From Escherichia coli (GTDB lineage Bacteria; Pseudomonadota; Gammaproteobacteria; Enterobacterales; Enterobacteriaceae), in NCBI RefSeq assembly GCF_050920415.1, contig NZ_CP169309.1: DNA of 64,000 bases; one strand, written 5' to 3'. A program made the position numbers and the translations under genes. The stretch's first letter is position 1. The number at the start of each line of letters is the position of its first letter. Of this stretch, positions 4,153 to 24,991 are shown piece after piece. The notes under the pieces are model-generated. The model saw only the letters and a list, made by a program, of their open reading frames with translations, was not told where the DNA came from and made no database searches.

Positions 4153-5015
4153 GCTTAGTCAGCCGTTGTCTCCGGGTGTCGCGTGCGCAGTTGCACGTCA
4201 TTCTCAGACGAACCGATGACTGGATGGATGGCCGCCGCAGTCGTCACACTGATGATACGGATGTGCTTCTCCGTATACACCATGTTATCGGAGAGCTGCC
4301 CACGTATGGTTATCGTCGGGTATGGGCGCTGCTTCGCAGACAGGCAGAACTTGATGGTATGCCTGCGATCAATGCCAAACGTGTTTACCGGATCATGCGC
4401 CAGAATGCGCTGTTGCTTGAGCGAAAACCTGCTGTACCGCCATCGAAACGGGCACATACAGGCAGAGTGGCCGTGAAAGAAAGCAATCAGCGATGGTGCT
4501 CTGACGGGTTCGAGTTCTGCTGTGATAACGGAGAGAGACTGCGTGTCACGTTCGCGCTGGACTGCTGTGATCGTGAGGCACTGCACTGGGCGGTGACTAC
4601 TGGCGGCTTCAACAGTGAAACAGTACAGGACGTCATGCTGGGAGCGGTGGAACGCCGCTTCGGCAACGATCTTCCGTCGTCTCCAGTGGAGTGGCTGACG
4701 GATAATGGTTCATGCTACCGGGCTAATGAAACACGCCAGTTCGCCCGGATGTTGGGACTTGAACCGAAGAACACGGCGGTGCGGAGTCCGGAGAGTAACG
4801 GAATAGCAGAGAGCTTCGTGAAAACGATAAAGCGTGACTACATCAGTATCATGCCCAAACCAGACGGGTTAACGGCAGCAAAGAACCTTGCAGAGGCGTT
4901 CGAGCATTATAACGAATGGCATCCGCATAGTGCGCTGGGTTATCGCTCGCCACGGGAATATCTGCGGCAGCGGGCTTGTAATGGGTTAAGTGATAACAGA
5001 TGTCTGGAAATATAG
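4110..5015 (+). CDS. insD: IS2 transposase OrfB (InsD), DDE integrase-like
   Basis: 301-aa ORF overlapping insC in the -1 frame; sequence ...[50 protein letters not shown]... recognised as IS2 InsD. Confidence 0.9.
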
Positions 5016-7048
5016 GGGCAAATCCAGTACGTGACCTGGTATATGAAATGCGGGGGCAAAATACTGGCAATGCTAAAGCAAGAAAAGGTGCTAAGGCGTG
5101 GAGAGAAGTTACAGAGCTGCTGCGCCGCCGGTTTAATGATGCTGGTGGGGACATTGGCTATCTCGAAAACTGGGGGATCCCTCAACATCATTCTATGGAA
5201 AAGGTTGGGGCGGTATCAAAGGATAAGTGGGTTAGCGATGTTATAGGTAAGCTGGATCGCAAATATTATATCCGAGCCGATGGACAACTGATGAACGATG
5301 CCGAGTTGTCTGCATTTCTTGGAGAGGCTTATAACACGATCGCTACTGGTGGGCTGAATAAGCTTACTGATACCGGAATGCGAATTTCCGGCGCACGTGC
5401 TAACCGTGGTAATGCATCACGACAGATACATTTCAAAGATGCAGATTCCTATCTGCAATATCAGCAACTTTATGGCGATCGCTCTCTATGGGAAATCATG
5501 GTCGGTCACCTGGAAGGTATCAGTAAAGATATTGCACTGGTGGAAACATATGGCCCAAACCCCGATCATGTTTTCCGCTCTCTTCTTGATCAGGTGAAGG
5601 CAGAAACGGCAACAGCTAACCCGAGTAAAACCGGTAAAGTCGAGCGGCTGGCGAACAACACAGAGAATCTGTACAACTTTATTTCCGGAAAGACACAGCC
5701 TGTAGCAAATCCGCACATCGCGCGATGGTCTGACAATATCCGCAACTGGCTGGTTGCCAGCAGACTCGGATCCGCGTTGCTGTCATCGTTCTCTGATCTT
5801 GGAACCATGTATCTGTCTGCGAAGGTGACCAACCTTCCAATGAACCAGTTATTCCGCAACCAGCTTGAAGCTATGGACCCAACGAACCGTACTGAGCTTG
5901 CGCGGGCGCGCCGCGCTGGTCTGGCGATGGAATCTCTACTTGGCAGCGTTAACCGCTGGGCGATGGATAATATGGGGCCGTCAGTGTCTCGTTGGGCTGC
6001 AACGGCGGTAATGCGTGCCAGTGGGCTTACAGCATGGTCAGATGCGCACAAGCGCGCCTATGGCGTAACCATGATGGGAAGCCTGGGAGAAGTAGTGTCA
6101 CGGACACCAGACCTTCGTAGCCTCGATGACTCTGATTTTCGTATCCTGAAAAGCAAAGGGATTACTGACACAGACTGGAGCGTATGGAAGCTGGCGCAAC
6201 AGGAGGACTGGGGGAACGGTAATAATACGATGCTGACACCGGAAAGCATTATGCGTATCCCTGATTCAGCAGTTAAACATCTTGGTGAGCCTGAACGCGT
6301 GAAATTTGAGGCAATGCGTAAACTGCTCGGTGCCGTAACTGAAGAAGTTGATATGGCTGTTATTACACCGGGAGCACGTGAGCAACTGATAACCGGTTCT
6401 GGTATTCAGCGTGGAACATGGAAAGGTGAATTAACGAGAAGTGTTTTCCTGTTTAAATCGTTCCCTATCTCGGTGGTTATGCGTCACTGGTCACGCGCTA
6501 TGGGTATGCCGTCTGCTGGTGGGCGTGCGGCATATATTGCGACGTTTATTGCCAGCACGACCATTCTTGGCGCTTTGTCTCAGCAACTTAACGACCTTGC
6601 GTCTGGTCGTAATCATCGCGAGATGACAGGAGAAGATGCTGCTAAATTTTGGCTTGGTGCTCTACTGAAAGGTGGTGGTCTTGGCCTTTACGGTGACTTT
6701 TTATTGTCAGATCACACTAGGTACGGAAGCGGCGCGCTGGCGTCGATGCTTGGCCCGGTAGCTGGTCTGGTTGATGACGTAGTGAAGATTGCTCAGGGCA
6801 TACCGTTAAATGCTGTGGAAGGGAAGAATGAGCAGACTGGTGGTGATCTGGTTAAGCTGGGGAAGGGGCTGATGCCAGGTGCGAATCTCTGGTACTTGAA
6901 GGCGGCTCTCGATCACATGATCTTTAACCAGATGCAGGAGTATTTTTCACCAGGCTATTTGCGTAAAATGGAGCAACGTTCGAAGAAAGAGTTTAACCAG
7001 ACATACTGGTGGCGACCACAGGATGTCACTCCGCAATAAGGATGAGAA

Positions 7049-7189
7049 ATGATTGCTTTTATTCTTGTTGTGTTTGCGCTTGTTGCACTTGGCGTTATGA
7101 ACCGTAAATGTATCATTGACGATGGCGAATTTGCTGTTGCAGTTATTTTGATATTATCTGGTGTAGCAGGATACATAGGCTTGTCATAA
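7049..7189 (+). CDS. Hypothetical small hydrophobic peptide (46 aa, two predicted hydrophobic segments)
   Basis: ATG at 7049 preceded by AAGGATGAG 4-10 nt upstream; translation MIAFILVVFALVALGVMNRKCIIDDGEFAVAVILILSGVAGYIGLS; stop TAA 7187-7189; followed by palindromes and a terminator. Too short for the ORF track. Confidence 0.35.
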   Translation: MIAFILVVFALVALGVMNRKCIIDDGEFAVAVILILSGVAGYIGLS

Positions 7190-7209
7190 CGTGAGTGTGA
7201 CATGTCACA

Positions 7210-7233
7210 GGCCGCTTTCGCGGCCTTTTCTTT
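7210..7233 (+). terminator. Rho-independent terminator (GGCCGC-TTTC-GCGGCC followed by TTTTCTTT)
   Basis: 6-bp GC stem with 4-nt loop followed by a T-run on the + strand; preceded by the perfect palindrome TGTGACATGTCACA (7196-7209). Overlaps the stop codon of the convergent minus-strand ORF. Confidence 0.5.
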
Positions 7234-7489
7234 ATGTGGTTTGTTTTCGTAGTTGTTCGGCACAATAGTCGAGATGTGTTTGCAGATCCTGCATAGACAT
7301 CTGTGAGCTGGTGACGTAGTTAATCAGTGCAGTCAGTTCGGCAAGTGGGCCATCGACATTAAATCCATCCTTATCGAGATCCCGGAGTAATTTCATCAAG
7401 TGCGATCCTTCCACCAGTGACCTGACGCCTCCCGGCGTGTGAATCCTTTCGGTAAATCCCTCTTCCAGTGGATAGTGATACTGCTGCAT
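7232..7489 (-). CDS. Hypothetical small acidic protein (85 aa from the ATG at 7489) behind a LexA box
   Basis: ORF track gives 7232..7507 from a TTG; a better start is the ATG at 7489 (MQQYHYPLEEGF...) with GGAGAAG 7 nt upstream. A strong LexA box lies about 20 nt upstream. No family recognised by eye. Confidence 0.5.
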   Translation of the reverse strand: MQQYHYPLEEGFTERIHTPGGVRSLVEGSHLMKLLRDLDKDGFNVDGPLAELTALINYVTSSQMSMQDLQTHLDYCAEQLRKQTT

Positions 7490-7508
7490 CTTATCTTCTC
7501 CATGCAAT

Positions 7509-7528: not shown

Positions 7529-7684
7529 TCAAATAATTTGTTTGCTATCCAGCACGTTTTGCGAATCACCTGAAAGGTAATATCTGCTCACATTAACACT
7601 CTTTCCATCCATATATGGTTTTTCAGGTAATAGAATAACCAGATATGCGGCGCAACGGGTGCTGCGACTATCTGGAGATTTAAC

Positions 7685-9940
7685 ATGACGGTCTCAACCG
7701 AAGTTGACCACAACGAATACACAGGCAATGGCGTTACGACTTCATTCCCTTATACCTTTAGGGTTTTCAAGGAATCTGATCTGGTAGTGCAGGTGGTTGA
7801 CCTTGACGAAAATATCGCTGTGCTGGCTCTGGATACTGATTACACTGTCACTGGGGCTGGTGGATATAACGGCGGTAATGTAATTCTGTCGAAGGCGTTA
7901 GCTAACGGTTACCAGATTTCTATATCACGAGAGCTCCCGGTTACGCAGGAAACTGATTTGCGTAATCAGGGGAAGTTCTTTGCAGAAGTGCATGAGGATG
8001 CTTTTGATAAGCTAACGATGCTGATCCAGCAGGTTCGAAGTTGGTTTAGCTTGGCGCTGCGCAAGCCGTCATTCGTGGCAAATTATTATAACGCGCTGAA
8101 CAACTATATTCGAAACCTGAAAGACCCGGTAAACCCGCAGGATGCATCCACAAAGAATTATGTGGACAGTACGGTTTTATCGAATATCGACCATACAATC
8201 CGTGTTCCTGATTCTTATATCGATCCGCTGCCACCTCTCGCTCAACTTGAAGGAAGCATAATCGGCATCGCCAACGGTAAGCCCGTTCCGTTCCCTGTGC
8301 CTTCAGGAACGGCGGCTGACGTATTCAACCAGTTGGCCAGCAGCGCTGACGGGAAAGGTGATGCGCTGATAACAGTGAAGCAGCCTTACCAGGGGGCAAT
8401 TTCTCTTTCGCAGCATATAAAAAATGCACAAGCCATTAGTGTTGTTGATTTTGGAGCGACAATTGATGGAACGCTTCACCCTTTAAGCGAGATATTTTCA
8501 ACACTATCAGCTGCTCAGATGGTATATCCATTTGTTTCATCTCTATCTCAATCTGTTGATTATGCTGCGCTTCAGTCCGCATGTAACACGGGAAAAACAG
8601 TGCTTATTCCAAAGGGAACTGGTTACTATAATTCAACTATTTTTCTGAAAAACTCCGTTAGGATTGTTGGAGAGGGAACTGATACAATAAATAGAGCGCA
8701 ATCATTTATGTCTATTGTTGGTAATATTTCAGCCTTTGCTTTAGATCAAGGTGATTCCCTATCGACAAAAATGATTCAGATTTTTATTGATGGTCTTTAT
8801 ATTTTCTATGATCCAGGAACCACACCAACGAATCCTGAAAATGATGGTGGGAAAATTGCATTTAATTTCTACTCGACAATTCCAAATTCAACAAGCTTGG
8901 AAATGTCTGAAATTAAAAACTGTACAGTTCATGGTGCATGGTCATGCTTTAATGATCAGACTGGCACATACTTGACAAAACTTACGAATGTGTGGGCCAG
9001 AAACTGCCATAATGGTTTTACAAAAGGAACTGGCACTACCATTCTGATGGAAAGATGTTATACATCTGGATGTATATCACCATATCAGTTTGGTTCTGTC
9101 TTTGCAGCTACAATGATTAACTGTGCCATGGATGGATCAAATATTTCGTTAAACGCAGGTTCGCTTGGTGGGGCTGGCGTTCATGTTCTTAACACACATA
9201 GTTTTAACATTATTGGTTTTGATGCGGAGGGTAACACCATCTCTACAGATGGTTATGGAGAGGCAGCACTATTCCATTTCGAAAATAGTAGTGGTGGCAT
9301 TTCTGGCCTGACTGCACATCAGAACAGCATGCGAAGTGTTGCGCCAAGTGATGCTGGTGTAGTTTCCTACATCAGGGCGTCAGGTAGCAGCGATGTTAAA
9401 ATTGAGTCATCAGAAGATGATTTATCTGACACCAACACAGTTGCATATACTGGGTCTGGGTATCCCATCATGCTACATGCAACTGACACAGCTAAAATAA
9501 GCGTCTTTAATAGCAGATTCAGGGCGACTACCACTGGTACCCCTGTCTTAAGTACGCTAAGTACTGGTGATGTATCATGGTATGACTGCCCTAAAAAAAC
9601 AGGACTTATCGTAGATGGTTATTCACAAATAACATCTAAGGAAGGATTGCAAACATCATGCTTCTATACCAGTAAAGGCTCTACTGCTGTTGCTGAAAAT
9701 ACTCCGACAACACTTTTCTCTCTACCAGATTCGCAAGGTACTTACATTATTAGCGTATGGGTGGCTGGAAGCGGAGAAAATTACGCATCTACACAACTGG
9801 CAATGTATGATGGAGATAAGCTAATTCTTGTTGCGTTAAAAATAGCAGCATTTCTTAGTTTTTCAGCAACAGGGAGAATTGTAACCATTACAAGCCAGGT
9901 GGCAGGCACTTTAAACTGGACTTACACTAAAATAGGTTGA
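7685..9940 (+). CDS. Phage tailspike / tail fibre (751 aa), probable O-polysaccharide-specific receptor-binding protein
   Basis: N-terminus MTVSTEVDHNEYTGNGVTTSFPYTFRVF... has the Y-x-G-x-G...F...F signature of podovirus tail-fibre/tailspike particle-binding domains; from memory it resembles epsilon15/phiV10-type tailspikes (unverified). The C-terminal two thirds are visibly AT-rich and Ser/Thr/Asn/Gly-rich, consistent with a beta-helical receptor-binding domain. Confidence 0.75.
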   Translation: MTVSTEVDHNEYTGNGVTTSFPYTFRVFKESDLVVQVVDLDENIAVLALDTDYTVTGAGGYNGGNVILSKALANGYQISISRELPVTQETDLRNQGKFFAEVHEDAFDKLTMLIQQVRSWFSLALRKPSFVANYYNALNNYIRNLKDPVNPQDASTKNYVDSTVLSNIDHTIRVPDSYIDPLPPLAQLEGSIIGIANGKPVPFPVPSGTAADVFNQLASSADGKGDALITVKQPYQGAISLSQHIKNAQAISVVDFGATIDGTLHPLSEIFSTLSAAQMVYPFVSSLSQSVDYAALQSACNTGKTVLIPKGTGYYNSTIFLKNSVRIVGEGTDTINRAQSFMSIVGNISAFALDQGDSLSTKMIQIFIDGLYIFYDPGTTPTNPENDGGKIAFNFYSTIPNSTSLEMSEIKNCTVHGAWSCFNDQTGTYLTKLTNVWARNCHNGFTKGTGTTILMERCYTSGCISPYQFGSVFAATMINCAMDGSNISLNAGSLGGAGVHVLNTHSFNIIGFDAEGNTISTDGYGEAALFHFENSSGGISGLTAHQNSMRSVAPSDAGVVSYIRASGSSDVKIESSEDDLSDTNTVAYTGSGYPIMLHATDTAKISVFNSRFRATTTGTPVLSTLSTGDVSWYDCPKKTGLIVDGYSQITSKEGLQTSCFYTSKGSTAVAENTPTTLFSLPDSQGTYIISVWVAGSGENYASTQLAMYDGDKLILVALKIAAFLSFSATGRIVTITSQVAGTLNWTYTKIG

Positions 9941-9975
9941 TGTTATGCGTGGGGAGCAATGCTCCCCATCATCAA

Positions 9976-11835
9976 TTAAAAAATAAATGGCTTGTCATTT
10001 TTTAATTTTTTCCCAAACTCCCTTGAGCCTTCTAGAGTGAAATGACTATTATCAAAGTAAAGATAATCACCTTTAGTAGAAAGGATGTCACAATTCATTG
10101 ACTTTCCGCACTGCTCGGCAAGCGTATCTATGTATTTATACGAATGCTGGTTGCTACCAAGATAGCCTTTTATCGTATTGTTAATTTCAACTCTACTATT
10201 GTCATAATACTTTTTAGAGTATTTATTTATCCCATCAACTGTGTTTACGCCAGATTTAAAAGCAGACTTAATTATTTCCATTGGCTGTGCCGTAAACTTC
10301 ATCTTAGGCCCAAATACAATAACTTCTCCTTTAGTCCTCTCCTGTATTTTGCCTATAGAGTAAAGCATCCCGAACAGATCGCCAACGCCATAATCATCAT
10401 GAAGGATTATAATGTTAGCTTCAGCTATGGCTGGAGATGAGATTACGTCATTGAATATTTTTTTGCACTTTTCTACATAGGGCATGTCGTTTGGTGTATA
10501 ACCAAAGTTTGAACATAAGTTTGTAGTTCTTATATAAGTTATATCACCCTTCATCCCATTTTCAGTAAGTGCATAAGTCAGATCTATGCCATGAGAATTA
10601 CCGATTATTACTATTTTTTTGTCACCTGTCTTCGGTACAGGGTGAGGCTTGTCTCCATCAACCCAATACCTGTTCATTTGTTCTTTTAGCTGTTCGGACG
10701 TCATTGTGGCAAACGAAAACCTTGATGGAATTCCAGATAGCAATAGTACAGCGAAGCACAAACCAACTACACCACCTACAGGTAGCACGATTGAAGTTAA
10801 TTCATTCAAGGACCTGCCGTTTTTAAATTTTGAAAGTGCCTTTCTTGAAGGGTTTTCAATTAAATAAAATGATGCGGCACCAATAAGAATTGATAAGGCA
10901 ACACCTGATACTGTATAAACCATATCATCCATCTTATTCATTGACATATATACAACTATGGGCCAGTGAACCAGATATACCGAGTATGAAATTTTCCCAA
11001 CCCATTGAGATAATGCATTATCAAGTAATAGGTTATCTTTACATCCAAGATAAATGACAAAGAAAGTAGAAACGACTGGTATTAAGGCAAGATACCCAGG
11101 CCACTTCATTAAGCTGTTAAGCAAGACTATCCCCGATACTGCAAAGGCTATGGCAATCCATCTAAATACAGCAGTGCGTTTTGAATTTTGTATAGTAGGA
11201 AGAAGGTAGGCAAGGCCGCCAGCCAGCATCTCCCAAGCTCTGCTTGACAGAAGATAAAATGCAGCGCCCTGATTATTATAAGAAAGATACACTGAGGCAG
11301 TAAATGATATAATTGCAAGGATGGCAACAACATACCTTATATGCTTAGCGCCCAATAGCTTTGCAATCACCATCATTATGATTGGATATACCATGTAAAA
11401 CTGCCACTCTACAGAAAGCGACCATGTATGAAGAAGCCATTTCTGCTTTGATGCAGTATCAAAATAATCAATGCTATGGTAATACTCAACGTTTGAGAAA
11501 AATAAAAGGCTACTTCTTACGTGTTGAGCCAGGTATTCATATTCAGAAGGTAAAAGAATGAAGTAACCAACTATCAGAACAGCAACTGAAACTACAGTTA
11601 AAGCAGGTATAATTCTTCTTGCCCTATCAAGATAAAATCCTAACAGTGAAAAGTTTCCATTAGATATCTTTGTGTAAATTATTCCAGTCATCAGATACCC
11701 TGATATAACAAAGAATATATCTACGCCTGAAAATCCACCAGAGAACCCTTTGACTCCGAAGTGATAAAGGACAACTGCCATAACAGCAATAGCCCTAAGC
11801 CCGCCTATATCTGTTCTGTATTTTAAAGAAGACAT
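9976..11835 (-). CDS. Membrane acyltransferase-3 family protein with C-terminal SGNH-like domain; probable O-antigen acetyltransferase (OafA/Oac-like)
   Basis: 619 aa; N-terminal R-x10-H motif (RTDIGGLRAIAVMAVVLYH) and about 10 hydrophobic helices typical of acyltransferase-3; C-terminal soluble domain with a GNSH block. Strongly AT-rich gene, convergent with the tailspike. Confidence 0.8.
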   Translation of the reverse strand: MSSLKYRTDIGGLRAIAVMAVVLYHFGVKGFSGGFSGVDIFFVISGYLMTGIIYTKISNGNFSLLGFYLDRARRIIPALTVVSVAVLIVGYFILLPSEYEYLAQHVRSSLLFFSNVEYYHSIDYFDTASKQKWLLHTWSLSVEWQFYMVYPIIMMVIAKLLGAKHIRYVVAILAIISFTASVYLSYNNQGAAFYLLSSRAWEMLAGGLAYLLPTIQNSKRTAVFRWIAIAFAVSGIVLLNSLMKWPGYLALIPVVSTFFVIYLGCKDNLLLDNALSQWVGKISYSVYLVHWPIVVYMSMNKMDDMVYTVSGVALSILIGAASFYLIENPSRKALSKFKNGRSLNELTSIVLPVGGVVGLCFAVLLLSGIPSRFSFATMTSEQLKEQMNRYWVDGDKPHPVPKTGDKKIVIIGNSHGIDLTYALTENGMKGDITYIRTTNLCSNFGYTPNDMPYVEKCKKIFNDVISSPAIAEANIIILHDDYGVGDLFGMLYSIGKIQERTKGEVIVFGPKMKFTAQPMEIIKSAFKSGVNTVDGINKYSKKYYDNSRVEINNTIKGYLGSNQHSYKYIDTLAEQCGKSMNCDILSTKGDYLYFDNSHFTLEGSREFGKKLKNDKPFIF

Positions 11836-11982
11836 AATCGCTATCGTTTTGAGTAAGATGCATTAATGATATCACCTTTAGGGTAATTTCGTTAAGAGTT
11901 ATCCGATCAAATTTAATCCACATATGGTTTATTGTGTATGATGAACTCACCAACTAAGGGGGTTCTTTATGCACAATAAACG

Positions 11983-12396
11983 GTGGTCACTATGGCGCAT
12001 GTGCTGACAACAGAGTCAGTAAATCAGGGGTTAAGCCTGACTGCACTGGCGTCCGTGTTCGTTGGTATACCGCCTGAGGTGGCTTTAGGTGCTCTTGCTG
12101 GTGCGGTAATTTTTGTTACCTCAGCGGTTGAGTATCCGATAAAGCGTAGGTTGCTCCTGGCGCTCCTAAGCTTCCTCTGCGGCGTTCTCTTCTATAAAGC
12201 GACAGCTTCCATTCTGATTGGCTTTGCCAGCCTGATACCAACGATTACGCAGGACTCTTTTGAGAAGGGCATTGTGTATTCCGCCGGGGCATTCGTGTCT
12301 GCAATCGTCGCTGTTCGCATTGGCATCTGGCTGTATCACCGTTCTGAAAATCCGCGCGACATGATCCCGGGGAGAAAAGACGATGACCAGTCCTGA
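11983..12396 (+). CDS. Putative holin (137 aa multi-span membrane protein)
   Basis: First gene of a + strand cluster ending in endolysin and Rz/Rz1; several hydrophobic helices and a charged C-terminus; two closely spaced in-frame Met codons (MVTMAHV). Holin call is positional. Confidence 0.5.
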   Translation: MVTMAHVLTTESVNQGLSLTALASVFVGIPPEVALGALAGAVIFVTSAVEYPIKRRLLLALLSFLCGVLFYKATASILIGFASLIPTITQDSFEKGIVYSAGAFVSAIVAVRIGIWLYHRSENPRDMIPGRKDDDQS

Positions 12397-12676
12397 TCTG
12401 CTTCTCATCCTTAACGCCGCTATCTGCGGTGGCATTGCAATCCGAGTGCTTCTGTTCCGCCGTGACGGGTCACGTCACCGCTGGTGGGGTGGGTGGCTCG
12501 CCTATCTGCTGATCGTCGTGGCAGCCAGCGTACCTATCCGGACTTTCTACGGGTACTACGTCAGCGCCGACTGGTCAGAAGTCATCATCAAAGCCGTGTT
12601 CCTGGCTGCGCTCATCAAGACAAAAGGGAACGTGGTGCAAATTTTCAAGATAACGAGGTCCCAGCATGGACATTAA
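12383..12676 (+). CDS. Putative second holin/antiholin-like membrane protein (97 aa)
   Basis: Overlaps the end of the previous ORF and the start of the endolysin gene; two or three hydrophobic segments; basic C-terminus. Confidence 0.45.
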   Translation: MTSPDLLLILNAAICGGIAIRVLLFRRDGSRHRWWGGWLAYLLIVVAASVPIRTFYGYYVSADWSEVIIKAVFLAALIKTKGNVVQIFKITRSQHGH

Positions 12677-13295
12677 CCAATTCCAGCGTGCAGCTGGCAT
12701 CAGTGAGGTGCTGGCCGCGCGCTGGTACCTGCATATCACCGCAGCCATGAAAGAGTTTGGCATCGAGCAACCGCTGCACCAGGCGATGTTTATCGCGCAG
12801 GTGGGGCATGAGTCTACTGGTTTCACCCGGCTGCAGGAAAACTTCAACTACAGCGTTGCAGGGCTCGCAGGATTCGTCCGCGCCGGGCGACTTACTCAGG
12901 GTCAGGCCAACGCGCTGGGCCGCCGTGCTGGCGAGCCATCGTTACCGCTGGAGCGCCAGCGCGCGATCGCCAATCTGGCGTACAGCAAACGCATGGGGAA
13001 CAATGCCCCTGGTGATGGCTGGAATTACCGTGGCCGCGGACTTATCCAGATTACCGGTTTGAATAACTATCGTGATTGCGGAAACGTCCTGAAAGTGGAC
13101 CTGCTGGAGAATCCTGAACTGTTGGCGCAGGACGAATATGCGGCTCGTAGCGCGGCGTGGTTCTTCGCCAGCAAAGGATGCATGAAGTATACCGGCGATA
13201 TTGCACGTGTAACTCTGATTATCAATGGTGGCCGGAACGGCATCGACGACCGGCGCGCGCGGTACATCACTGCCAGTAAGGTGCTGGCGGTATGA
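12666..13295 (+). CDS. Endolysin, glycoside hydrolase family 19 (chitinase-like lysozyme)
   Basis: 209 aa; motif FIAQVGHESTGF...NYRGRGLIQITG typical of GH19-type phage endolysins; position between holin-like genes and Rz. Confidence 0.85.
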   Translation: MDINQFQRAAGISEVLAARWYLHITAAMKEFGIEQPLHQAMFIAQVGHESTGFTRLQENFNYSVAGLAGFVRAGRLTQGQANALGRRAGEPSLPLERQRAIANLAYSKRMGNNAPGDGWNYRGRGLIQITGLNNYRDCGNVLKVDLLENPELLAQDEYAARSAAWFFASKGCMKYTGDIARVTLIINGGRNGIDDRRARYITASKVLAV

Positions 13296-13774
13296 TCTGG
13301 GCATTCGCAAAAGCATACTGGAAACAGTTGCTTATCGTGGTGATGCTTGCTGTTCTGGTCATATCGGGAATTGTTTCCTGGAATGTACACGGCAGTCGTC
13401 AGTACGATGCCGGGTATGCGCAGGCGAAGGAAGACCGCAAAGCTGAAGATGAGATAGTTCGTCAGCACTACGAACAGGAGAAATCGATCAATGAACGTGA
13501 AGCGCAGCAGAGGATCGACCAGGCGCGCAATGATGCTCTTGATGCTGCCGCTCGCGCTGGCCGGTTGCAGCAACAACTCTTTGCCATCCGTGAGCAGCTC
13601 AGGCAGTATAACGCCATTGTCGGCGCTGGGACGTCAGCCGCAGACACCGGAGTTTTGCTTGCCGACGTGCTCAGCAAATCTCTCGAGAGAAACAGACAAC
13701 TGGCAGAGTATGCTGACCGGGCAGCCGAAGCCGGAAGAGTCTGCGAAAAACAATACGACACCCTGACCAGATAG
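13292..13774 (+). CDS. Rz-like inner-membrane spanin (i-spanin)
   Basis: 160 aa; N-terminal transmembrane helix followed by coiled-coil-prone Q/R/E/A-rich periplasmic domain; ATGA overlap with the endolysin stop; contains an embedded +1 frame lipoprotein ORF. Confidence 0.75.
   Translation: MIWAFAKAYWKQLLIVVMLAVLVISGIVSWNVHGSRQYDAGYAQAKEDRKAEDEIVRQHYEQEKSINEREAQQRIDQARNDALDAAARAGRLQQQLFAIREQLRQYNAIVGAGTSAADTGVLLADVLSKSLERNRQLAEYADRAAEAGRVCEKQYDTLTR
13530..13766 (+). CDS. Rz1-like outer-membrane lipoprotein spanin (o-spanin), embedded in Rz
   Basis: +1 frame ORF wholly inside Rz; from ATG at 13530 the product MMLLMLPLALAGCS... has a signal peptide with lipobox LAGC and a Pro-rich mature part. 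ORF track starts it further upstream at 13491. Confidence 0.7.
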   Translation: MMLLMLPLALAGCSNNSLPSVSSSGSITPLSALGRQPQTPEFCLPTCSANLSRETDNWQSMLTGQPKPEESAKNNTTP

Positions 13775-13884
13775 CATGGCATTTTTCATGGTACTGATTT
13801 CCGGTGACGGTATATAAAACGGTACTAGAAAAATGAAGTTTTGGAAAAATGTTATCACTCAATTGGTTATGATTGTCGTAAATA

Positions 13885-13899
13885 ATTGAGTGGGAATGA
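13885..13899 (+). other. Putative prophage attR core / remnant of the guaA 3' end (ATT GAG TGG GAA TGA = IEWE-stop)
   Basis: 15-nt string encoding the C-terminal residues ...IEWE plus stop of GMP synthase as recalled for E. coli GuaA, in the orientation expected for guaA converging on yfgI; preceded in frame by a stop codon, so it is an isolated gene end, not a gene. Confidence 0.45.
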
Positions 13900-13924: not shown

Positions 13925-13953
13925 AAAACCCTCTGTTACTACAGAGGGTTTTT
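13925..13953. terminator. Bidirectional rho-independent terminator (AAAA-CCCTCTGT-TACT-ACAGAGGG-TTTTT)
   Basis: Perfect 8-bp stem, 4-nt loop, flanked by A-run and T-run; lies between the guaA-end remnant and the convergent yfgI stop. Confidence 0.65.

Positions 13954-23936: not shown

Positions 23937-24991
<1,055 letters not shown>

Follow-up and report, generated by a model that had tools for sequence, protein, structure and literature searches.

A conserved RNA hairpin in the lysis leader of an epsilon15-like prophage and its possible role in gating holin synthesis

The stretch of Escherichia coli DNA analysed here (contig NZ_CP169309.1, 64,000 nucleotides (nt); hereafter the window) includes the right end of an epsilon15-like (Uetakevirus) prophage, in which an inverted repeat lies between a divergently transcribed acyltransferase gene and the lysis genes. 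We found that this repeat belongs to a long hairpin in the lysis-sense RNA, at 11927–11981 on the + strand, recognized by its fold, its conservation and its homology to a feature labelled 'RNaseIII' in phage epsilon15. The hairpin is very probably a functional element of the lysis leader. We propose that the repeat would form the lower stem of a cis-acting structure in the 5′ leader of the holin–holin–endolysin–spanin mRNA, where a strong ribosome-entry site and an upstream open reading frame (uORF) are closed by folding and may be opened by ribonuclease III (RNase III). This full mechanism, combining gating, the uORF and RNase III, is a close call that we would not yet quite back.

A conserved hairpin in the lysis-sense leader RNA

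The original prediction started from two perfect 9-bp arms separated by 35 nt, and these are present as described, with TTTATTGTG at 11928–11936 and its reverse complement CACAATAAA at 11972–11980 of the + strand. Such arms alone prove nothing, because repeats of this kind are expected by chance: counting perfect 9-mer inverted repeats with spacers of 3–40 nt, we found about 11 in dinucleotide shuffles of the 64-kb window and 35 in the window itself, and many of the 35 were overlapping seeds of terminator hairpins. The perfect complementarity in fact covers 10 bp (GTTTATTGTG / CACAATAAAC) and complementarity continues inward from there to give 20-nt arms, the predicted 9-mers being pairs 2–10 at the base of the hairpin. 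Folding the RNA from 11927 to 11981 gave 23 pairs (20 Watson–Crick and 3 G·U), with one U·U mismatch, one bulged A and a 6-nt loop (AACUAA). Its free energy was −27.8 kcal/mol (z = −8.8) and none of 200 shuffles folded as well; the 86-nt context around it gave −33.5 kcal/mol (z = −6.1). The extended hairpin is far beyond chance, unlike the bare 9-mer arms. Its 3′ end lies 10 nt from the holin ATG at 11992 and 1 nt from GGUGG, which resembles a Shine–Dalgarno (SD) sequence.

We rejected an intrinsic terminator or attenuator: the 3′ arm is followed by CGGUGGUCACUAUG, which lacks a U-tract, and a scan of 11500–12300 found no terminator-like site, either here or just downstream. Thus, of the earlier proposal of a structured leader controlling read-through, the structured leader held up, as a conserved lysis-sense hairpin, and the read-through fell away. 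Scanning 11000–13000 with the covariance models of Rfam 15 (E ≤ 10) returned nothing relevant.

DNA similarity to epsilon15, phiV10, SPN1S, BUCT554 and other phages starts at about 11862–11870, just outside the acyltransferase gene. The lysis genes and flanks are about 75% identical to those of related phages, and the 80 nt around the hairpin are 82–98% identical in 26 phage records, mostly 90–98%, with the lowest values (82–85%) in a few Klebsiella and E. coli phages. A search for the exact loop recovered 76 IMG/VR contigs, in which 48 of 48 distinct variants gave the same fold. Because this set is biased by its search pattern, we also collected loci through the holin protein (65–100% amino-acid identity) and found the hairpin in 78 of 78, some with variant loops. 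Only two representatives carried the element in a scan of one genome per species (Klebsiella pneumoniae and Candidatus Erwinia dacicola), which gives little information on its range. Among 5,426 complete E. coli genomes, the three leader types that we distinguish below (type I, to which the window belongs, type II and type III) occurred in 92, 61 and 72, together about 4% if genomes counted twice are ignored. The hairpin stays with the lysis cassette whether it sits beside oac, gtrABC, or an O-antigen ligase-family gene plus a polymerase inhibitor, and it is also found beside co-directional genes or with only a tail-fibre gene further upstream. By crude calling of open reading frames, the nearest long upstream frame was divergent in 41 and co-directional in 28 of 69 distinct contexts, and the hairpin is independent of whether this neighbour is divergent.

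A homologous 63-nt stretch of the epsilon15 record (NC_004775.2, 24755–24817) is annotated as 'protein_bind: RNaseIII, mRNA processing' and ends 6 nt before the holin ATG. The window is 94.9% identical to epsilon15 24749–24826 over 78 nt, and the epsilon15 element adopts the same fold (−35.5 kcal/mol); by sequence homology and by its identical place before a gp23-like holin gene, the hairpin at 11927–11981 is a homologue of this feature. The epsilon15 annotation, which appears to be a sequence-based prediction, is silent on the buried SD sequence, AUG and uORF described below. The upstream neighbours also differ, being an O-antigen polymerase inhibitor and an O-antigen ligase-family gene in epsilon15 and an acyltransferase gene in the window. 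The hairpin itself is thus already annotated but uncharacterized, and the window copy adds a member; we could find no earlier description of the occluded uORF or of the three leader designs.

The two strands of the element are not equivalent. In the window, the + strand RNA folded with −27.8 kcal/mol as against −15.7 kcal/mol for the − strand. Across 50 variants the means were −25.1 and −12.2 kcal/mol, and the + strand was better in all 50, because the G·U pairs of the helix turn into A·C mismatches on the other strand. Such asymmetry indicates that selection acts on the lysis-sense RNA, and it speaks against a DNA operator or cruciform, which would be symmetric. Single substitutions in type I leaders were mostly G·U-compatible, and 92% of cells in the type I alignment were paired, compared with 35–57% when the partners were slid. 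The perfect 9-bp arms turned out to be the minority state among relatives, the pair 11932:11976 within them being unpaired in 30 of 62 distinct type I variants.

Leaders with other sequences also fold. In type II (phage phiv142-3, locus positions 1433–1490), a different occluding 5′ arm pairs with the homologous 3′ arm in a new register, and the 3′ arm again carries an SD sequence (AGGAGG) and an AUG. Type III (phage ZX5, locus positions 1436–1490) retains the base helix as GUUUACUAU/AUAGUAAAC beneath an unrelated top; two of its pairs differ from those of the window by compensatory changes, U-A to C-G and G-C to A-U. At a more distant locus (L167, holin 65% identical in amino acids), one base pair is swapped from U-A to A-U. 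The type II, type III and L167 leaders all fold significantly (z = −4.0 to −5.5). Phage BUCT711 has no leader, its holin gene starting 7 nt after the tailspike gene (locus positions 1488–1494). In Hafnia phage yong2, whose lysis cassette is distantly related (holin 38% identical), we noted a long leader hairpin of unrelated sequence after a terminator (1330–1428; −29.4 kcal/mol, z = −3.7), which may be a convergent design.

The Shine–Dalgarno sequence and reading frame within the hairpin

The hairpin carries a very strong SD sequence, UAAGGGGGU, in its loop and the upper part of its 3′ arm (11955–11963, + strand). Assessed against the known 3′ end of 16S rRNA, it has the potential for 9 contiguous pairs, and the Klebsiella variants UAAGGAGGU are perfect. 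All 62 type I variants retain its GG.GG core, and the mean unpaired probability of the sequence is 0.25. Downstream in the 3′ arm lies an AUG at 11969, likewise unchanged in all 62 of these variants, which opens a predicted uORF of 12 codons (MHNKRWSLWRMC, then a stop at 12005–12007) spanning 11969–12007 on the + strand and overlapping the holin start out of frame; the arm CACAATAAA supplies its codons 2–4. Both the SD sequence and the AUG recur in type II, where the surrounding sequence is different. Every type I and type II leader examined had a uORF, of 6–14 codons, with its stop always between −5 and +20 nt from the holin AUG; five different stop positions achieve this, and at seven loci the uORF stop and the holin start overlap as AUGA. 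No record annotates the uORF.

In RNA containing both arms, the uORF AUG has an unpaired probability of 0.001, and opening the uORF initiation region would cost about 25 kcal/mol. The uORF-bearing leaders go together with a weak holin SD sequence, GGUGG (11982–11986 on the + strand; invariant as GGTGG and annotated as a ribosome-binding site in phage Tyrion), whereas type III, which has no uORF, has a strong, canonical AGGAG before the holin gene. The holin start that we use is the ATG at 11992, the most likely one; annotated homologues are all 405 nt long counted from this ATG. The start at 11983 given earlier for the first lysis gene is a GTG that is only the mechanical first start codon, and the codons between the two vary freely among relatives. 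We rejected a −1 frameshift that would carry ribosomes from the uORF to the holin frame, because the latter has a TAA at 11977–11979 and a slippery site is absent.

Transcription start, proposed mechanism and competing explanations

Directly 5′ of the hairpin is a copy of a palindromic motif, CCACATATGG (11918–11927, + strand; consensus CCAYATRTGG). The window has two copies, the other at 7609–7618 upstream of the tailspike gene, against an expectation of 0.27, and CCAYATRTGG(TTT) also precedes late operons in epsilon15 (2988, 19940 and 24751) and in phiV10. The motif probably marks where transcription starts in a late-promoter type common to these operons, or else is bound by an unknown regulator; at 3–5 bp, it was judged too weak to act as an RNA mini-hairpin or a terminator. 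It starts about 36–48 nt to the right of the centre of an operator-like dyad described below, and in the late leaders it is followed by a hairpin and then an SD sequence. The tailspike leader has a hairpin at 7639–7675 (CCAGAUAUGCGGCGC...GUGCUGCGACUAUCUGG; the 84-nt leader folds with −23 kcal/mol, z = −2.9) whose 3′ arm runs into the SD sequence (CUGGAG), and the epsilon15 gp3 leader also has a hairpin before its SD sequence, which takes in the motif itself.

By eye, a −10-like hexamer lies just before the motif in all three leader types. In the window the candidate is TTTAAT (11912–11917, + strand), which would place the start at about A11924; type II has TTGACA-17-AACCAT, retained in three different upstream contexts, and type III has TTGAGA-18-AATGAT. 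A second −10-like hexamer, TATGAT, lies within the 5′ arm (11937–11942, + strand), and the pattern TATNAT is found in 61 of 62 type I variants and is not retained in type II, type III or L167. Two placements of the start are thus possible, at about 11924 or about 11949. We favour the former because both arms are needed in the RNA and because the other late leaders share this layout; the lysis transcript would then start within the motif, 0–3 nt before the hairpin.

Building on the observed strength, strand and conservation of the hairpin and on the occlusion and geometry of the uORF, we infer the point at which transcription begins, translation of the uORF and its coupling to the holin gene, and cutting by RNase III; events would run as follows. 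Transcription would begin at about 11924, placing the hairpin at the 5′ end of the message. While folded, the hairpin would shut the strong upstream ribosome-entry site and crowd the holin ribosome-binding site, and holin translation would be very low. The 23-bp helix would suit E. coli RNase III, and cleavage, for which the epsilon15 annotation speaks, or slow opening would free the uORF start; ribosomes on the uORF would then cross the holin start and stop within about 20 nt, and through this translational coupling they would reach the holin AUG. Overall, both the level and the timing of lysis-gene expression would be gated post-transcriptionally, and the mRNA 5′ end may be stabilized as well. 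RNase III accommodates about 22 bp of double-stranded RNA and its in vivo sites are enriched in 5′ untranslated regions (PMC6212723); with 23 pairs, one mismatch and one bulge, the helix here has the roughly two helical turns (20–22 bp) of an RNase III substrate.

Several points weigh against this mechanism. We know of no demonstration that RNase III cleaves the hairpin. A consensus promoter scan made no + strand call at the lysis leader. The hairpin does not enclose the holin GGUGG, which in a transcript beginning at 11924 has a predicted unpaired probability of about 59%. The predicted uORF peptide is not conserved across leaders, and the common uORF stop at +13 can be explained by the conserved holin codons 5–6. 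The leader device is also dispensable for lysis, because type III lacks the uORF and BUCT711 lacks the leader. Finally, only three type I pairs are altered on both sides; 18–24 of 500 shuffles matched the observed paired percentage, both-sides-changed cells and covariation score, and 250 of 500 matched the observed number of both-sides-changed pairs. Type I covariation is statistically weak because the sequence barely varies, and the conservation of sequence could reflect a cause other than pairing. For this reason, the structural argument is built on how unequally the two strands fold and on the variant leaders of type II, type III and L167.

Holin expression determines when and whether a phage kills its host and, apart from the lambda dual-start paradigm, little is to our knowledge documented about how holins are controlled after transcription. 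If the gate is real, it would be an RNA-level mechanism of lysis timing and safety that is easily tested, and it would give a function to the unexplained epsilon15 'RNaseIII' site; epsilon15-like prophages, the carriers of the element, are common in E. coli, Salmonella, Klebsiella and Enterobacter. Annotators should be warned that what looks like an operator in the divergent region is an RNA element. A stronger version is unlikely in our estimate, namely that the leader is a dedicated lysis lock, with a consensus-strength entry site and a holin-coupled uORF closed in a hairpin of about −28 kcal/mol until RNase III or a late trigger opens it. Such a lock would set lysis timing and guard the lysogen against leaky holin synthesis, and would represent a principle of holin control distinct from dual-start antiholins, with three interchangeable leader designs.

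Two known systems share parts of this arrangement. The sdi stem-loop of lambda S lies before the holin start, selects between two in-frame starts and sets lysis timing. Similar to sdi, the hairpin is an RNA stem-loop immediately 5′ of a holin start codon, but sdi has a short stem and a dual start with a charged residue, whereas the occluded start here opens an out-of-frame uORF. A dual-start reading was rejected: GTG 11983 would add only Val-Thr, the corresponding residues in type II are Glu-Asn, and type III has no GTG. In hok/mok/sok and tisB, translation of the toxin needs an overlapping upstream frame or a standby site, which is sequestered in the primary transcript and freed by processing. 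The lysis leader is like hok/mok and tisB in having an overlapping uORF with a sequestered initiation region ahead of a small membrane-damaging product. By contrast with hok/mok, it has no 3′-end fold-back element, and the holin gene heads a phage lysis operon of four genes. We found no promoter for an antisense RNA opposite the leader, the sole promoter-like site on the − strand (11895..11866) lying to the left of the hairpin and pointing away, and on this ground, with no sign of a cis-encoded antisense RNA gene opposite the leader, a type I toxin–antitoxin locus was rejected.

A competing explanation, somewhat improbable and yet to be taken seriously, is that the hairpin is a plain processing signal of the T7 type or an mRNA-stability element, in which the buried SD sequence, AUG and uORF are incidental. 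The T7 R0.3, R1.1 and R18.5 sites and the site in the lambda N leader are mRNA hairpins of about two turns near ribosome-binding sites, and their cleavage can raise downstream translation. A stem with very few unpaired nt 5′ of it, as in the ompA leader, protects mRNA from 5′-end-dependent decay. The lysis hairpin would likewise lie in an mRNA leader, next to a ribosome-binding site, and has a size fitting the RNase III valley of about 22 bp (PMC6212723). The epsilon15 record labels it an RNaseIII site, the tailspike and gp3 leaders also have hairpins just before their SD sequences, type III has a hairpin and no uORF, and the predicted start would leave at most 3 unpaired nt 5′ of the stem. 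Unlike the T7 and lambda N sites, with which it shares no sequence similarity, the helix here holds the complete, occluded initiation region of a uORF; it is also nearly perfect, whereas T7 single-cut sites have an asymmetric internal loop. A stability role leaves three features unexplained: the invariant 9-nt perfect SD sequence with an AUG 5–6 nt downstream in types I and II, the pairing of this same SD/AUG segment by a different 5′ arm in type II, and the co-occurrence of the weak holin SD sequence with the uORF.

Less probable still, at a level that we would call doubtful, is fold-back insulation. Here, the promoter would lie inside the hairpin, with TATGAT as the −10 element and the start at about 11949, and only read-through RNA would be silenced; transcripts from the operon's own promoter would not include the 5′ arm, leaving translation of the uORF and holin unhindered, and the lysogen would be protected from accidental holin expression. 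IS10 and IS50 protect their transposase genes by such fold-back inhibition of externally initiated transcripts, and the lysis leader is similar to the extent that its 5′ arm precedes a possible internal promoter and its 3′ arm covers a ribosome-binding site. The internal promoter here, unlike in IS10/IS50, is only a candidate and is unconserved in type II and type III leaders. Consistent with insulation, TATNAT varies among the type I leaders only at its least critical position, and a start at 11949 would leave the uORF AUG 66% unpaired, compared with 0.1% in longer transcripts. RNA from 11860 also pairs the holin SD sequence (unpaired probability 0.03), and TAATAG or TAATAA lies 9 nt past the CATATRTGG motif upstream of the tailspike and gp3 genes. 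Against it, there is no −35 element and the consensus scan makes no call; TATNAT is missing at this position in type II, type III and L167; the type III hairpin covers no ribosome-binding site, which makes insulation impossible there; and the epsilon15 gp3 hairpin includes the motif, so the start there must be upstream of the motif.

The paired operator of the original prediction, a DNA-level site or cruciform coordinating the divergent promoters, is very improbable. The divergent intergenic location and the very high conservation of the DNA sequence fit it. However, the G·U pairs make the strands asymmetric; the 9-mer is unique, its two matches in the window being the arms themselves (expectation 0.8), which leaves no further copies in the prophage to serve as an operator set; and its centre is mismatched in 30 of 62 variants. 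The arms, 20 nt long with a 15-nt gap, are unlike the Uetakevirus operator ATTACC-N5-GGTAAT and show no match to it. Coordination of the seroconversion gene with the lysis genes likewise finds no support, as the hairpin is kept whatever lies upstream and has no divergent gene beside it in 28 of 69 contexts. A functionless chance repeat, for which the roughly 11 perfect 9-mer inverted repeats expected per window would speak, is effectively refuted by the z score of −8.8 and by near-invariance over about 100 related loci while the flanks diverge.

Operator dyad, lysis cassette and neighbouring features

The real operator-like site of the intergenic region is a 17-bp dyad, ATCACC-TTTAG-GGTAAT (ATCACCTTTAGGGTAAT), at 11871–11887, 40 nt to the left of the hairpin. 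It matches the annotated repressor operator of the family: in the epsilon15 record, a 17-bp dyad, ATTACC-N5-GGTAAT, is annotated as the repressor site in the immunity region, and that genome has 12 such sites, some of them preceding the terminase, gp3, tailspike and lysis genes. A second dyad in the window, ATCACCTGAAAGGTAAT at 7565–7581, lies upstream of the tailspike gene. These dyads suggest direct control of the late and lysis operons by the prophage repressor. In the paper on phage ZX5, where the promoters are only predicted, repressor overexpression lowered holin and endolysin transcripts by more than 99.9%. The acyltransferase gene has a predicted leftward sigma-70 promoter (TTAACG-18-TATCAT with an upstream TG; 11866–11895, − strand) in a conserved block, and the dyad at 11871–11887 falls within its spacer, an odd position for a gene expected to be expressed in lysogens.

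The tailspike gene, a late gene of the prophage, occupies 7685–9940 on the + strand. A strong terminator-like hairpin at 7209–7226 (AGGCCGC-TTTC-GCGGCCT, then TTTCTTT) lies just past a short open reading frame (7050–7190, downstream of the gene at 5000–7039) and before a small − strand gene (7232–7507); the tailspike gene would therefore need its own promoter, as in epsilon15. The divergent acyltransferase gene (9976–11835, − strand) encodes an O-antigen acyltransferase with AT3 and SGNH domains, a seroconversion moron. Where the tailspike and acyltransferase genes converge at their 3′ ends, there is an AT-rich inverted repeat at 9974–10007 (AATTAAAAAAT...).

The lysis cassette is on the + strand. 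Its first gene (11992–12396) encodes a putative holin (Phage_holin_8; PF16931, E = 8e-13) homologous to epsilon15 gp23, and the remainder of the cassette (12383–13774) comprises a second holin of the Phage_holin_3_7 family (12383–12676), a GH19 endolysin (12666–13295) and a DUF2514 Rz-like spanin (13292–13774), followed by the host genes yfgI and yfgH. Where prophage and host DNA meet, in the gap that separates the spanin gene from yfgI, an inverted repeat at 13925–13950 (AAAACCCTCTGT-TACT-ACAGAGGGTTTT, then T) resembles a bidirectional terminator by eye and was not flagged by the scan. A further inverted repeat, with perfect 9-bp arms, lies past the lysis cassette in what is presumed to be attR (13856–13892; CACTCAATT...AATTGAGTG) and may be a recombination or IHF-related site.

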